From: Candidatus Zixiibacteriota bacterium
Lineage (GTDB): Bacteria > Zixibacteria > MSB-5A5 > GN15 > FEB-12
Assembly: GCA_040756055.1 (NCBI GenBank)
Contig: JBFLZR010000009.1
Location: 4,620-68,619, forward strand
Direction of reading: 5' to 3'
DNA: 64,000 nucleotides
The translations under genes were made by a program, and so were the position numbers. The notes beneath the pieces were generated by a model that did no database searches, had not been told where the DNA came from, and saw only the letters and a program-made list of their open reading frames with translations. Every line of letters begins with the position of its first letter. Position 1 is the stretch's first letter. Shown here piece by piece: positions 46,409-52,048 of this stretch.

Positions 46409-47284
46409 TTACTCAACATTCTGCACCAGCTCGCGAATCTTCTCTGTTTCTTCCTTTATGGTGATAACCATAGTAGAGATTTCGACGTCTGCGGACTTGG
46501 AGGCTATAGTATTCGCCTCGCGATTCATTTCCTGTAGTATAAAGTTGAGCTTTTTGCCTTGCGGCCCGCTGTCCTTGAGGGCGGCCTGGTACTGATCGCA
46601 ATGGCTCAGAAAGCGTGTGCATTCCTCGGTTATGTCGGTCTTTTCCGCCATAAGAGCTATTTGTTCTTCGATTCTTATGTTTTCAGGGAGCGGTTTATCA
46701 AGGAGTTCTTCAAGGCGTTTTGTTATCTTCTCGCGATAGCGGTCGACCGCACCCACGGCGAATTTCTTTATCTGCTTTACTTCTTTAGATAGAATAGCCA
46801 GGCGCTTTTTCATATCGCGGGCCATAGCCGCTCCCTCGGCGCGACGCATATCCGTTAGACCTTTGAGAGCCTTGTCGGTAGCCGTCTTAAGATCGTTCCA
46901 GATTGCTTCGTCATCGATACTATCCTCTTCGGGCTTCGCGACTTCGGGTAGAAGTATCAGATCCGACATGGTCACTTCGCCGGCTATTTTCAGCTCTTTA
47001 CGGAGGGCTATCAACTGCTTGTAGTATGACTTGAGGGCTGTCTTGTTGATACGGTACTGCTCCTCGAGTCCATTGTTGGCATCAAAGCCCACATATATAG
47101 ATATTTTTCCCCGGCTGACTGCGGCGCCAACGAGATCCCTGATTTTGGGCTCCATGGTGAAGAACTGGCGAGGCAGGCGCTGGTTGATTTCGAGAAAGCG
47201 GTTGTTAACGCTCGAAATCTCTACGGTATATTTGCCGGTTGGGGTTTTTAATTCGGCTTTTCCAAACCCGGTCATAGAATTCAT
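46409..47284 (-). CDS. yicC: YicC/YloC-family endoribonuclease
   Basis: MNSMTGFG, EISSVNNRFLE, DITEECTR and LNFILQEMNREANTIASK. Confidence 0.93.
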   Translation of the reverse strand: MNSMTGFGKAELKTPTGKYTVEISSVNNRFLEINQRLPRQFFTMEPKIRDLVGAAVSRGKISIYVGFDANNGLEEQYRINKTALKSYYKQLIALRKELKIAGEVTMSDLILLPEVAKPEEDSIDDEAIWNDLKTATDKALKGLTDMRRAEGAAMARDMKKRLAILSKEVKQIKKFAVGAVDRYREKITKRLEELLDKPLPENIRIEEQIALMAEKTDITEECTRFLSHCDQYQAALKDSGPQGKKLNFILQEMNREANTIASKSADVEISTMVITIKEETEKIRELVQNVE

Positions 47285-47387
47285 TTTATTTTGCCCTTAA
47301 AATACAAAAAACAGGCTAAAGAATAAGCCATTGGAGTGATTTGTCAACTGATATTACTTTCAAAGTGACCTATTTGGCCGTTTTGAC

Positions 47388-48062
47388 CTAAAAACACGAC
47401 TCGTCTTGGCCGGCTAAGACCTTATCGATACGGGAGATTGAACCTTCCTTTTGTCTCGTCTCGGTGCGCTCGAAAAGATGTTTGAGTTGCTGCGCCGACC
47501 TGTGGATAGCGGTAATTCGACTGGTCATCTCATCGTCTATACAGCCGTTCTCGGTCAGAATCTTCTCCGCCGTCTGCAGAATTGTATTCAGTGGTTCGGC
47601 CAGTTCATGTTCATAACCTCTGGCAGACCGTTCTGACGGCAGCGCCGGTTTGTCGGCACGCTGAGACAGACTCTGCCTGCGTCGATACAATCCACTCACC
47701 ATTCGGGGGATCACGGCGTAATAGGAACTGTCTTTTATCAACAACTCCTCACAGCCGCACCCGAAGACTTCCTTTGTCATCTGTTCGGAGATGTTTTCCG
47801 CGACTACAATCAGGGCCAACTCGGGATCGCTGTGGTGCAGGACCCGAACAAGATGCGTGCCCGAACATCCGGTTATTGAAAAGTCAACGACGGCGATATC
47901 GAATTTTTGATGTTGAATGGCTTTTAAGGCTTGTTCGTAAGTTTTGACTAAGACGACCAGTGGGCGGTCGAGTCGGCGGGCTAACTGCTGCTCCATAAGC
48001 ATGCCGTGATACCCGTTTTCCTCGACGATTAATATTCGCGGACCGTTTTGCGGCACCGGCAC
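47388..48062 (-). CDS. Receiver domain plus C-terminal HisKA-like domain, no ATPase domain
   Basis: RILIVEE, AVVDFS and LLIKD receiver motifs; C-terminal EHELAEPLNTIL helix pair. Confidence 0.8.
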   Translation of the reverse strand: MPVPQNGPRILIVEENGYHGMLMEQQLARRLDRPLVVLVKTYEQALKAIQHQKFDIAVVDFSITGCSGTHLVRVLHHSDPELALIVVAENISEQMTKEVFGCGCEELLIKDSSYYAVIPRMVSGLYRRRQSLSQRADKPALPSERSARGYEHELAEPLNTILQTAEKILTENGCIDDEMTSRITAIHRSAQQLKHLFERTETRQKEGSISRIDKVLAGQDESCF

Positions 48063-48071
48063 TTGAGCACC

Positions 48072-49988
48072 TCACAGCAAAGGTATTGAGATTCTTACCA
48101 GGGTCCCTTCCCCTTCGGTCGATGTTATGTGTAAATCACCTTTAAGAGATTCAACAAGCTTTCTGGTCAGCGATAGTCCCAGGCCGAGCCCCGGGATGCT
48201 CTGGACTTTCTTATCCGGCACACGGTAAAAGAAATCGCAGAGTCTGGGAATGTATTTGGACGCTATTCCCATACCGTTGTCGGCTACGTCGATAGTACAT
48301 CGTTCTGCCGACACCTCGGCTTTTATCCTGATGGTTGTCTTGCCTTTGTCGCCGAAAACGACGCTGTTGGCCATGACATTGTAAAGAGCGGCGCCAAGCA
48401 GGCGCTGATGTGTTTTTATCTTGGGTAAGTTTTTATATGTACAGTCGACAGCGGCGCCGGGATACGCGTTAAATATCTTTTGGATTTGCTGATTGACGAG
48501 AAGGTTCAAATCGACGACCTGAGCCGCGTCGTGAATCTTGATCTGGCGCACAAATCCGGACAAGCGCCGGACGACATCGAGAAGGTTACCCATAGCAGCG
48601 TCTATTTTCTCAATGCAACTGTTGCCTTTTTCGCCGAGTTCGTTATAGAACTCGTGGCAGACCTGATCGGCTGTGTATGACACGGTCTTCAGCGATTTGC
48701 TCAGATTGGTCAGCACCGCCTGCCACATCTTCCAGTCGGGGGCGCCGGACAACATACTGTCGTTGGCGGCCAGGCCGGGGATGAAAACAAGGCAACTGCT
48801 CAGATCATCCGGGCTGTCGCCGAGCTTCATGACAATCAGCCGAGCATAATCGCCGGGTGATGTCTTGATCTCCACTGCCAGGTCGGCGTAATGGTCTTGC
48901 TGATCGTCGGGGGTCGCGATGTGGTCGACTATCTGTTTTTCAATGTCGGGGGCGTTGTATTCCATTAGCGGTTTAAGAGCGTCGCGGTAATGGCTTTCGA
49001 GTTGTGTTTCATTGAATATGGTCAACGCCGAGGGGTTATAACCGATGACCGCGCCTTCGTGATCAGTAAGCAGAGCCGCTATGCCGAGCGAATCCAGAAA
49101 GCCAATCGTAAACTTGATATCGCGCAGAGGGTCAGAAGCTGCCGTAGTTTCGCCGGTGGTCCTCACCATCCTGGCCACTACTGGTAGCGCACATTTGACA
49201 GCGGCTATGGCGCTTCCCGCCTGACGGTGATCAAAGTCCTCGGGGAAAATCAGGCGAACCAGGTATTGAGAGCCATCGGGCGTCTCGACACGGCTGATAT
49301 ACTCATCGGGAGCCGAACCATACCTCTCAATCACCGCCTGGACTGCATCCTGATCGATAAAGGAGTAATCGTTACCCGTTTGAGCGATGTCGAGGTGTAA
49401 ATCGCCGGGATCGCCAACGGCGTTAAACACGTGTTCTCCGGCATCCTCGCCGCTTACGGCCGAGCGGGGCTGAAGACTTTCACCGGTGATCATATATACG
49501 CATGCCTGACGGGCCCTCACCGAATGGCAAACAGCCTGAAGCAACTGTCTCCATTCCGGCTTGCCGTCGATAGAAGCCAGGTTTTCCAGAATTGTCTTGT
49601 AGTGAGAAGTCATTTCGGACGGACTTTGACTTTCGACCAGGTCCGTCTGGTCGATTATAAGCTGGTAATTTACGGGATTCCCGGCGATGAAGTTCAGCGA
49701 CACCACGGCCCGTGCCGCGACCGGAGTGCGCTGCTGGTCGAGCAACGTTATTGTAGTGGAGTCATAAAAGGTTTCGTAGTGATTGCGATGCGACAGAAGC
49801 TGCTCTATTAACTTCTGTGATGGTTCATCGATGAAATCAAGCAGGGATTTCCCGAAAAGATCTTCCTTGGTATAGCCGAGCAGATCCTCGACTTTTTCAT
49901 CAACGTATACGAATCGTCCCTTGAGATCGATTTTACAAACGGCGCATCGTGTCAGGCCGATGCCGCTGGAGGACTGCTGAATGGTCAT
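48072..49988 (-). CDS. Soluble PAS/PAS histidine-kinase-like protein with degenerate H-box
   Basis: N-terminal PAS; HATPase NVMANS, DNGMGI, FFYRV and GLGLGL; expected SHDL position reads LTNL. Confidence 0.8.
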   Translation of the reverse strand: MTIQQSSSGIGLTRCAVCKIDLKGRFVYVDEKVEDLLGYTKEDLFGKSLLDFIDEPSQKLIEQLLSHRNHYETFYDSTTITLLDQQRTPVAARAVVSLNFIAGNPVNYQLIIDQTDLVESQSPSEMTSHYKTILENLASIDGKPEWRQLLQAVCHSVRARQACVYMITGESLQPRSAVSGEDAGEHVFNAVGDPGDLHLDIAQTGNDYSFIDQDAVQAVIERYGSAPDEYISRVETPDGSQYLVRLIFPEDFDHRQAGSAIAAVKCALPVVARMVRTTGETTAASDPLRDIKFTIGFLDSLGIAALLTDHEGAVIGYNPSALTIFNETQLESHYRDALKPLMEYNAPDIEKQIVDHIATPDDQQDHYADLAVEIKTSPGDYARLIVMKLGDSPDDLSSCLVFIPGLAANDSMLSGAPDWKMWQAVLTNLSKSLKTVSYTADQVCHEFYNELGEKGNSCIEKIDAAMGNLLDVVRRLSGFVRQIKIHDAAQVVDLNLLVNQQIQKIFNAYPGAAVDCTYKNLPKIKTHQRLLGAALYNVMANSVVFGDKGKTTIRIKAEVSAERCTIDVADNGMGIASKYIPRLCDFFYRVPDKKVQSIPGLGLGLSLTRKLVESLKGDLHITSTEGEGTLVRISIPLL

Positions 49989-49999
49989 GTTATTTTTGT

Positions 50000-52048
50000 T
50001 TAGTTCGCCTTCAACAACTTAACACGGTATGTTTGCCGGTCTGTGTTGATCACCACGATGTAGACGCCGGCTGCCACAACCTTACCACTTTGATTGCGGC
50101 CATCCCAATGTTCTACCAATACACTTAGTGCATCGGCATTTACGGAGAAATTATTGACTTTTTCCCACACTTTTTCTCCGGAACTGTTGAAAAACGAAAT
50201 AGACTGGATATTACCCGCTTCGGGCCCGACAAAGATGGAGACTTGATCGATAAAGGGATTTGGCCCGGCTGTTACCGGGTCAGTAAAGGTGCCGTACACT
50301 TGAATAGTGAAGAATGACGTATCAGAGAAATCCAAAAGTGAGGCAATCAGGCCGATCTCGACCGAGGGAACATCTGCCAGTTCGCCGCTGACCTCAAGTG
50401 AGCCGGTACCATCGCCGTTATCGGTCAGAATTACCCAGCCCGGCAGATTTATTCCCGTAAAGGACGGGACATCATCAGTCCAACCGCTGCTGGTAAAATC
50501 GAAGGTCTGAGTTTGGTCGCGCCCGACCTCAATGATATCGGGTAAGCTGAAATCAACAAACAGGTTAGCTGTTCGGGCGGCATTGAATAGGCCATAACCG
50601 AAATCGTTATCGGGAATAGCGCTCTTACTGCCTGTCAGTTTAATGCGTTCCACCAACTCCGCTGCAGTTAGCGTTGGATCGCGCTGCAGTGCCAGCGCTG
50701 CTCCGCCAGCGGTGAGGGGTGCGGAGAACGAAGTACCGTTGACCAGGGTAAAACCGCCGACGTGGCTGGCCGCAACAACACTCACACCGAGTGCTGTTAT
50801 ATCGGGTTTAATGCGCCCATCGGCCGTCGGGCCGGGCGATGAAAAGGAAGCCAGAGTTGAATCGGGATTCGCGGCTCCCACAGCCAGCACCGAGTCGCCA
50901 TCGGCGGGAGCGATTATGTGTCCCCAGGTGTTATTGCGTTCGTTCCCGGCAGAGTTGACGACCAGGATGTTTTTCGAGGCAGCTATATCGGCCGCGATTG
51001 TAATCAATGTCGTATTGCCGTCGAGATCCTCAAAAGTATAGCTGCCGCTGTCTTGAAACTCGTTATAACCCAAGGAAGAGTTGATGATGTCGACGCCGAT
51101 CGAGTCGGCCCATTCGGCAGCCGCAATCCAATTGTATTCTTCCATTTTCACTTCGGTGCCGTTACAGGTGATTTCGGTTTTGGCCAGAACGAAATCAGCA
51201 TCGTGCGCCACACCGATGAGAGTCCCCGGGGTATAGCCACCGACAACAGACAGAGTAGCCGTACCGTGAAAAGTCTGGTCGGTGGAAAACGAAGACGGGC
51301 ACTCCGGTTCATCGACAGCGACATCATCATTGATAAAGTCGTAGGTGGCAATTATGCTCGTCGAGTCAAACGCTTCGTGAGAGGGGTCAAAACCTCCGTC
51401 AAAGAAGGCAATAGTAACTCCTTCTCCGGTAAGTCCGGCCTGGTGCAGCTTCAGGGCGTTGATAAATTCGGTCTGGAAGAGCGATGGGCCGTAGTCGAAA
51501 TCGATTGCCTCAAGTGATCGAGCCACCGGTTTGGCTGAGGCAACTTCATCTCCGATATCAGTTACAAGGGTTCTGACCGGATCCACTTGTCGGACGAACG
51601 GCAACGAGGCCGCTTTCGCCAGCCGATTGGCATCCGTCTCAATTGCCACAGCCTTGAGCCAGCGGGATACGCGCTTTACTGACACCCCGGTGCTTTGTAT
51701 CTGCTGTATGACCGATTGACGGACCGGATAATCCCGCCGGTCGATCAGTAAATTAACCGGGTCAACTTTTGCCCTTCGCTTACGGGCTCGCTCAGTAAGC
51801 GTCACGGGAGACGACTCGACAGCCGAAGAATCAAGATAAAGCCAGAACTGGTTTTCGCTCTGACTGCTCATCGCATTCACCAATGACTGAGCGCGCTCGG
51901 TATATTTGCCCGACGGCTCCTGAGCGAGAACCGGCACCGATAAAGCAGCCGACAGCAGGGCAGAAACCAAGCCGACTTTTACAATATGTCCGACGCAATG
52001 TGATCTGTTCATAACAGGGCAACTACTTAGTGTAACGCTATTCGTCAA
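50000..52048 (-). CDS. Secreted S8 subtilisin-like serine protease with C-terminal FlgD-Ig/CTD-like domain
   Basis: Triad FFDGG, FHGT and NGTSFSAP; oxyanion NSAGN; C-terminal GPNPF...WDGRNQSGKVVAAGVY. Confidence 0.9.
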   Translation of the reverse strand: MTNSVTLSSCPVMNRSHCVGHIVKVGLVSALLSAALSVPVLAQEPSGKYTERAQSLVNAMSSQSENQFWLYLDSSAVESSPVTLTERARKRRAKVDPVNLLIDRRDYPVRQSVIQQIQSTGVSVKRVSRWLKAVAIETDANRLAKAASLPFVRQVDPVRTLVTDIGDEVASAKPVARSLEAIDFDYGPSLFQTEFINALKLHQAGLTGEGVTIAFFDGGFDPSHEAFDSTSIIATYDFINDDVAVDEPECPSSFSTDQTFHGTATLSVVGGYTPGTLIGVAHDADFVLAKTEITCNGTEVKMEEYNWIAAAEWADSIGVDIINSSLGYNEFQDSGSYTFEDLDGNTTLITIAADIAASKNILVVNSAGNERNNTWGHIIAPADGDSVLAVGAANPDSTLASFSSPGPTADGRIKPDITALGVSVVAASHVGGFTLVNGTSFSAPLTAGGAALALQRDPTLTAAELVERIKLTGSKSAIPDNDFGYGLFNAARTANLFVDFSLPDIIEVGRDQTQTFDFTSSGWTDDVPSFTGINLPGWVILTDNGDGTGSLEVSGELADVPSVEIGLIASLLDFSDTSFFTIQVYGTFTDPVTAGPNPFIDQVSIFVGPEAGNIQSISFFNSSGEKVWEKVNNFSVNADALSVLVEHWDGRNQSGKVVAAGVYIVVINTDRQTYRVKLLKAN

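Follow-up and report, generated by a model that had tools for sequence, protein, structure and literature searches.

Whether a sensor histidine kinase may be divided over two adjacent genes, so that one product keeps the ATPase and the other the phospho-accepting histidine, is the question raised by a locus in a stretch of 64,000 nucleotides (nt) from a Candidatus Zixiibacteriota bacterium (assembly GCA_040756055.1, contig JBFLZR010000009.1, positions 4,620 to 68,619), this whole stretch being referred to here as the window. A gene for a protein of 638 amino acids (aa) with PAS and ATPase domains, the large protein, is followed there, 9 nt further, by a gene for a 224-aa protein, the small protein, consisting of a receiver and a dimerization and histidine phosphotransfer (DHp) domain. 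The sequence-only reading of the locus, whose gene layout is confirmed here, took the two products for a split kinase, the parts of which complement each other in trans, possibly as a DHp heterodimer. The comparative evidence presented below appears unfavourable to a split kinase in the window; the best explanation would be that the pair represents the end state, reached in this genus, of a long-standing signalling module of two genes in the Zixibacteria, not a kinase split by design, and the apparent split is probably best read as two staggered, separate losses that overlap.

Key residues across the Zixibacteria

The key residues were tabulated for 72 loci, i.e. 71 related loci that were fetched and the window itself. 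Among the kinases in this table, 31 lack the histidine in the canonical phospho-acceptor column, 30 of them belonging to the window's family (f1), where none of the tabulated kinases has it, and the 31st, at locus L115, to the sister family (f3); the column is variable in these proteins (T, S, N, R, E), and the N, G1 and G2 boxes of the ATPase are retained in 12 of the 31 and lost in 19. The histidine of the adjacent small protein is present in 8/12 cases with intact boxes and in 18/19 with degenerate ones, which is the opposite of what a split kinase predicts. The phospho-accepting aspartate of the receiver is found in 37 of the 44 loci with an adjacent kinase and in 12 of the 28 without it (Fisher p 5.5e-4, related genomes being counted as independent). 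These counts argue that the conserved link is that between the kinase and the receiver aspartate, which tracks the kinase gene, and that the histidine of the small protein serves something outside the pair. It is kept in 64/72 loci and in 46/53 database representatives, and persists where the aspartate has been replaced by G, N, A, S or E as well as where there is no neighbouring kinase. The aspartate is lacking in 23/72 loci and the histidine in 8/72, both together being lacking in none (0/72 and 0/53); as few double losses would be expected, this is suggestive only.

Concerning the history of the module, in the sister family f3 the kinase carries the H-box AHDLRAPL and its ATPase boxes are intact, and the adjoining small protein has the motif TLNHEINNPLM and a complete receiver (Asp, Thr, Lys); the ancestral state would resemble this family, with a receiver-DHp protein encoded just behind a soluble PAS kinase that has all its parts. 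The kinase would then have phosphorylated the receiver aspartate, by the logic in which LvrA acts on LvrB, and the H-box histidine of the small protein would have worked without a kinase domain, in phosphotransfer or as a phosphatase toward an unlinked partner. In f1 the large protein would subsequently have lost its canonical histidine. In several genera of f1, upstream remnants of 317–412 aa consisting of PAS without DHp or ATPase domains occur at L124:1688-2641 and L132:2002-3198, with similar ones at L125 and L159–L161, and the small proteins beside these stubs still carry the aspartate and a perfect H-box. The kinase lies directly upstream of the small gene in 17 of the first 20 loci and in 44 of all 72; the orthologs thus do co-occur, as a conserved, adjacent and coupled pair, which was one of the checks put forward by the sequence-only reading.

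The window's own clade (support 99/96 in the tree) departs from this pattern. The histidine column of its small proteins reads H (window), S, R, R, R, R, D, D, N, I and H, i.e. histidine in 2 of 11; the NNPLM part of the motif has disappeared, and the other four members of the genus are not recognised by Pfam HisKA. The four nearest genomes have all lost the histidine and all keep the ATPase. Within the genus the ATP-binding boxes are intact in 5/5 members, as is a histidine at position 445 of the large protein, at 44–67% identity, which for the boxes points to selection for catalytic activity or, failing that, for the binding of nucleotide; in the receiver, Asp and Lys do not vary within the clade. 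The mean pairwise identity of the small protein in the clade is 0.51 for the receiver and 0.30 for the DHp domain, the corresponding values being 0.54 and 0.57 in the sister family f3, and 0.26 and 0.50 in the other genera of f1. The conservation within the clade and the regional identities therefore indicate that the ATPase and the receiver remain under selection and that the H-box of the small protein has escaped it; the rest of f1, to judge from the same values, shows the reverse pattern. The codons in the histidine column are CAT (window), AGT, CGG, CGG and CGA, with CAT in the outgroup, and, together with the tree, they are more cheaply explained by an early change from His to Arg that was reversed later on in the window.

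The small protein belongs to a family of its own. Full-length relatives of 207–288 aa were found in 87 of the 251 genomes and 50 of the 120 genera of the phylum sampled, and a set of 1.84 billion representative proteins contains about 50 clusters of the family at 50% identity; no ATP-binding (CA) domain was present in any member sampled. Outside the window's clade the H-box is HE[IV]NNPLM, with HisKA matches down to E 6e-12. The closest relatives outside the phylum sampled are proteins of 430–550 aa from Nitrospinota and Desulfobacterota, and since this length fits receiver-HisKA-ATPase kinases, the family appears to derive from receiver-controlled kinases of the LvrB type by loss of the ATPase. 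Of the curated profiles, only the generic receiver and HisKA domains match the family. A search for related loci with a subset of the alignment returned mainly ordinary receiver-kinase hybrids from other phyla, and a word-based homolog search gave five relatives of the small protein and, for the kinase, little besides generic kinases. No description of ATPase-less receiver-HisKA proteins or of a graded decay of a partner kinase was found in the literature searched.

The two proteins and their genes

The sequence-only reading had described the large protein as a PAS protein with intact N, G1, F and G2 boxes, in which the H-box histidine is replaced by threonine at the usual distance from the N box, and both observations stand. 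Pfam detects PAS at residues 13–112 (E 1.5e-13) and HATPase_c at 528–637 (E 4e-19), all the box residues being in place (N541, D570xG572xG574, F587, G600xG602xG604). Pfam HisKA gives no match in the large protein and is detected in only 6 of its 22 orthologs; the NCBIfam kinase models, however, align over residues 428–637, so that a DHp-like region is present. The AlphaFold2 model, based on the 22 orthologs, consists of a PAS domain (16–113), an α/β domain (123–274), a PAS-like domain (287–404), the two DHp helices (419–446 and 448–484) and the ATPase domain (490–636). With Foldseek its C-terminal half superposes on ZraS (9jfj_A; template modelling score 0.75, target-normalised; root-mean-square deviation 3.4) and also on HK853. 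The protein has, in other words, the DHp hairpin and the CA domain of a class I HisKA kinase and lacks the histidine of the H-box. Its best conserved part across the 22 orthologs is the PAS domain, with the invariant residues C15, A16, V17, K19, D21, R25, D30, E34, G103, P105 and N107; the invariant cysteine suggests a cofactor or redox ligand.

The alignment of orthologs sets LTNLSKSL opposite AHDLRAPL, which brings Thr427, 114 residues before N541, under the canonical histidine; in the phmmer alignment with HK853, NLSKSLKT stands opposite NISHELRT, the register being shifted by 4, with Lys431 under His260. Neither register places a histidine at the phospho-acceptor column. Thr427 lies 8 residues into helix α1 of the model and 20 before the turn, i.e. 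at the canonical place. It should be mentioned that residue 435 (48684-48686), also in α1 and 8 residues after the canonical column, is Ser or Thr in 5/5 members of the genus (T, S, S, S, T).

The one conserved polar residue of the DHp domain in the window's family, and hence its only conserved histidine, is His445 (13/15), followed by Glu in 9/15; a histidine at this hairpin tip (xHExxxEL) is present in 25 of the 31 kinases without the canonical one. The phmmer and Foldseek alignments bring His445 to residues 274–278 of HK853, beside 268, 271 and 275, which are regulator-specificity positions and occur in PDB entries of rewired interfaces. The residue could be a relocated phospho-histidine or one that docks the receiver. 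The alternative acceptor named in the sequence-only reading, the histidine of VCHEFYNEL, is this same residue: such a role gains from its being the only conserved DHp histidine and suffers from its placement at the tip, 18 residues past the canonical site. That VCHEF might be the true H-box moved by indels was rejected, the family aligning without gaps, from α1 through the ATPase, with the canonical orthologs.

The possibility that the kinase of the genus is a decaying pseudogene was also rejected for the window, where the reading frame is open, all the ATP boxes being kept in the 5/5 relatives. A one-base frameshift was observed in the kinase ortholog of the nearest relative (genome G002, L013:7990-8140) between the PAS and the second domain; the sequence reads GAES* and continues in the next frame as LEPRSAVSG, giving open reading frames (ORFs) of 172 and 452 aa, and either pseudogenisation or an assembly indel may account for it.

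As to the small protein, it is as it was first described, a receiver with its aspartate, the motif EHELAEPL and a two-helix HisKA-like hairpin, after which it stops. Response_reg of Pfam covers residues 10–112 (E 8e-12), and HisKA reaches E 0.0027 and 18 bits over 151–200, under the gathering cut-off of 26.9; no Pfam match to SPOB_a or Hpt was obtained. The AlphaFold2 model (mean predicted local distance difference test, pLDDT, 84) shows the receiver, a long α5 helix (114–137), a linker of low confidence (138–144), the two-helix hairpin and a disordered tail. The H-box residues His152-Glu153...Pro157-Leu158 are present, His152 being 19 residues before the loop, in the canonical DHp geometry, and the protein ends at residue 224 behind the hairpin with neither a CA domain nor a CA-like remnant. 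Foldseek retrieves receivers and the receiver-DHp-ATPase kinase LvrB (8vc9) with the model, and the NCBIfam LvrB profile matches its receiver part weakly. Compared with the LvrB type, the small protein thus possesses the receiver with Asp and Lys and lacks the C-terminal CA domain. The coordinates of all these features are collected in Table 1.

Table 1 Position in the window of the gene pair and of its parts
Feature	Position	Strand	Evidence
Gene of the sensor kinase-like protein, 638 aa, soluble	48072..49988	(-)	ORF; Pfam PAS and HATPase_c; AlphaFold2 pLDDT 79.7; Foldseek
N-terminal PAS of the large protein, residues 13-112	49650..49952	(-)	Pfam; invariant columns in 22 orthologs
DHp hairpin of the large protein, α1 419-446, α2 448-484, without canonical H-box	48537..48734	(-)	AlphaFold2 pLDDT ~88; no Pfam HisKA match
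Thr427 codon, phospho-His column of canonical orthologs	48708..48710	(-)	ortholog alignment
His445 codon (VCHEFYNEL)	48654..48656	(-)	2 residues before the hairpin turn (AlphaFold2)
ATP-binding (CA) domain of the large protein	48078..48521	(-)	HATPase_c E 4e-19; alignments to WalK and HK853
Junction: kinase TGA stop, overlapping GAGGTG ribosome-binding site, 9-nt spacer, GTG start	48063..48074	(-)	direct sequence reading
Gene of the receiver-DHp protein, 224 aa	47388..48062	(-)	ORF; Pfam; AlphaFold2 pLDDT 84; Foldseek LvrB 8vc9
Receiver of the small protein, residues 9-137	47652..48038	(-)	Response_reg; Glu14/Glu15, Asp60, Ala88, Lys110
Asp60 codon, predicted phospho-acceptor	47883..47885	(-)	end of strand β3 in the model; alignment
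DHp hairpin of the small protein, α1 145-170, loop 171-175, α2 176-206, decayed H-box EHELAEPL	47445..47630	(-)	AlphaFold2; sub-threshold HisKA
His152 codon CAT	47607..47609	(-)	codon comparison; tree

The two genes are translationally coupled, since they are 9 nt apart and the Shine-Dalgarno-like GAGGTG overlaps the TGA of the kinase gene at a spacing of 5 nt from the GTG start of the small one. Behind the stop of the small gene only about 100 nt remain before yicC begins, so there is no space for an ATPase domain. A promoter-like site (TTGACA, 16 nt, TATTCT; 10/12 matches) is found only after the small gene and before yicC, at 47320-47347. The order S8 peptidase (with the sorting tail of a type IX secretion system), [kinase], small protein, yicC, gmk, topA, which occupies 46409-52048 in the window and was noted also with loci L019, L026, L145 and L146, is conserved throughout the class; in loci lacking the kinase, the genes of the S8 peptidase and of the small protein are direct neighbours. 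No terminal response regulator was found among these neighbours (S8 peptidase, yicC, gmk, topA).

Proposed phosphoryl flow and its alternatives

With regard to the function of the pair as it stands, we propose, at a probability of roughly 0.4, that a transmitter using ATP is controlled by the PAS sensor and directed at Asp60 of the protein co-translated with it, His445 being the candidate donor or contact and His152 dispensable. In the window's own clade the H-box of the small protein has decayed as well, with the ATPase boxes, Asp60 and Lys110 staying under selection; His445, which borders the patch where the receiver docks, would be the only conserved histidine usable as donor or contact; and the small protein would then signal through its dimeric helical hairpin. 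Several points weigh against this proposal. The tip histidine is kept about equally with decayed (16/19) and with intact ATPase boxes (9/12), so that its role may be docking or structural. It lies 18 residues, or about 27 Å along the helix, beyond the canonical site, and in the geometry of the HK853 type it should be out of reach for an ATPase attached at the distal end of α2; we know of no precedent for a phospho-histidine at the hairpin tip. Ala88 of the receiver stands where Thr or Ser is usual, and the counts treat related genomes as independent.

It is rather doubtful, on the other hand, that the large protein is a sensor pseudokinase performing no phosphotransfer, the DHp domain of which, with His445, would bind or release the receiver under the control of PAS and nucleotide, the receiver being phosphorylated, if at all, by another kinase of the genome or by acetyl phosphate. 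The canonical histidine is absent throughout f1, and many sister genera go further in decay, with the boxes lost in 19/31, the PAS stubs at L124 and L132 and finally the loss of the gene, the small protein persisting; the tip histidine, conserved whatever the state of the ATPase, maps beside the HK853 positions 268, 271 and 275; a kinase could come from among the 29 HATPase_c matches of the genome; and DivL, RetS-GacS (PMC8498467) and RedE (PMC2755868) provide precedents. A pseudokinase does not agree, however, with four ATP-binding boxes intact in 5/5 members of the genus at 44–67% identity, nor with the receiver Asp and Lys that are strictly kept in the clade.

The split kinase itself, in which the ATPase of the large protein would phosphorylate His152 in trans within a hetero-oligomer, the receiver acting as a gate and the phosphoryl group passing to Asp60 or to another regulator, is improbable. 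The window does co-encode an ATPase-containing polypeptide without the histidine and a histidine-bearing one without the ATPase, His152-Glu153...Pro157-Leu158 having the canonical geometry, and the genes are coupled; the histidine is, moreover, strongly conserved across the class (64/72, 46/53) in a protein that has no ATPase of its own. Against it, the histidine is not conserved in the clade (2/11), and the four nearest genomes, all of which keep the ATPase, do not have it; it is commoner beside a decayed ATPase (18/19) than beside an intact one (8/12), and it persists also where there is no kinase gene or only a PAS remnant of it. Of the trans-complementing pair suggested by the sequence-only reading, the complementary parts are thus real in the window, but the residues are not co-conserved. 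The heterodimer is not favoured either, the two DHp domains having no detectable similarity (BLASTP between the two regions gave no alignment), and their ancestral H-boxes differing in type: AHDLRAPL of the kinase is PhoR/EnvZ-like and HEINNPLM of the small protein is what we take to be an NtrB-like H-box. The same BLASTP result led us to drop the idea that the DHp domain of the small protein is a copy of that of the neighbouring kinase.

A combination of an intact ATPase, neither canonical nor tip histidine, and a partner with the aspartate and a perfect H-box, which speaks for a split kinase, occurs at L115, L140 and possibly L027, a displaced histidine being present in α1 of L140 and L027 (SHD in the latter). 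Phosphorylation in trans would be conceivable in these lineages, as in the window. The kinase at L115 (L115:2941-4821, genome G038, f3) has the H-box SRAVRAPL, i.e. His changed to Arg, with no histidine in α1 and with intact ATPase boxes, and its partner carries the aspartate and SHEINNPLM. Of the natural candidates for a genuine split kinase this locus would be the clearest, unless it reflects an error of metagenome assembly, the genomes being metagenome-assembled and single-residue states, such as the His-to-Arg change at L115, being open to errors of this kind.

A reverse relay, in which a third-party kinase would phosphorylate Asp60 and the phosphoryl group would pass to His445, in the manner of Spo0B or ChpT, or to His152, is very unlikely: it leaves the intact ATPase boxes of the genus without a reason, the neighbouring genes include none for a terminal regulator, and a histidine at the hairpin tip is not known to have a precedent. 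What speaks for it is the conservation of His445 in lineages with a degenerate ATPase, in an architecture recalling ChpT and Spo0B, the absence of any family member lacking both Asp and His (0/72, 0/53), and the transfer from RedD to RedE, where a regulator phosphorylates a kinase-like protein on histidine (PMC2755868). Taking the whole family into account, one may tentatively consider, with some scepticism, that the small proteins of 207–288 aa are DHp phosphotransferases or phosphatases free of a kinase domain, with a histidine outlasting both the aspartate and the kinase, and that the f1 kinase uses His445, or, alternatively, that L115 and L140 represent true split kinases.

It should be pointed out that, under domain-by-domain annotation, such pairs are easily taken either for broken genes or for cleverly split enzymes. 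The more interesting result is the class-wide family of ATPase-less receiver-DHp proteins together with the graded decay of the partner kinase. The module seems to hold two separable functions, the signalling from kinase to receiver and the output of the DHp histidine, each of which the lineages keep or lose independently; the series leading from the complete kinase through the loss of the histidine, the loss of the ATPase boxes and the PAS-only stub to the loss of the gene would be a natural experiment on the dispensable parts of a kinase. If the small proteins are phosphotransferases or dedicated phosphatases, they would add a new building block for phosphorelays.

Comparison with known systems

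LvrB of pathogenic Leptospira is a receiver-DHp-ATPase kinase activated by the upstream kinase LvrA (PMC13269768; PDB 8vc9). The LvrA-LvrB pair is the closest to the present one in wiring, with an upstream sensor kinase followed by an N-terminal receiver, a long α5/αS helix and a DHp domain. The small protein differs from LvrB in having no CA domain and, in the window's clade, a decayed H-box, and the upstream kinase differs from LvrA in having no phospho-histidine.

Precedents for split kinases are CheA3/CheA4 of Rhodobacter sphaeroides and HK1 (Rv0600c)/HK2 (Rv0601c)-TcrA of Mycobacterium tuberculosis. The latter appears in a listing as a three-protein system (PMC9321153). Just as in CheA3/CheA4 and HK1/HK2, an ATP-binding polypeptide without the acceptor histidine adjoins here a histidine-bearing one without the ATPase; unlike in those systems, the complementing histidine is not conserved in the window's lineage, and the histidine-bearing partner also has a receiver.

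RedE of Myxococcus xanthus, which cannot autophosphorylate, is phosphorylated by a regulator and serves as a phosphatase (PMC2755868), and RetS acts through DHp contacts (PMC8498467). RedE, DivL and RetS have retained the kinase fold in order to bind a partner, to transfer phosphate or to act as a phosphatase; in the large protein, by contrast, the ATP boxes are intact and the histidine column is variable, unlike the fixed Tyr of DivL. The small protein resembles Spo0B and ChpT in being a dimeric helical hairpin with a histidine and no working ATPase, and by this analogy the HEINNPLM-bearing small proteins outside the window's clade are likely to play the role of DHp phosphotransferases; Spo0B and ChpT, however, lack a receiver and still possess a CA-like domain in degenerate form, whereas the small protein presents the reverse, a receiver and no CA remnant.

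Finally, incomplete histidine kinases (iHK) are catalogued in P2CS and in a 2026 survey with HisKA-like profiles, which seeks new histidine-bearing DHp types (bioRxiv 10.64898/2026.02.27.708494). The large protein is similar to them in combining HATPase_c with a helical region that stands in the expected place of a HisKA and is not recognisable as such; unlike the targets of that survey, this region is shown by its orthologs to be an ordinary HisKA that lost its histidine.

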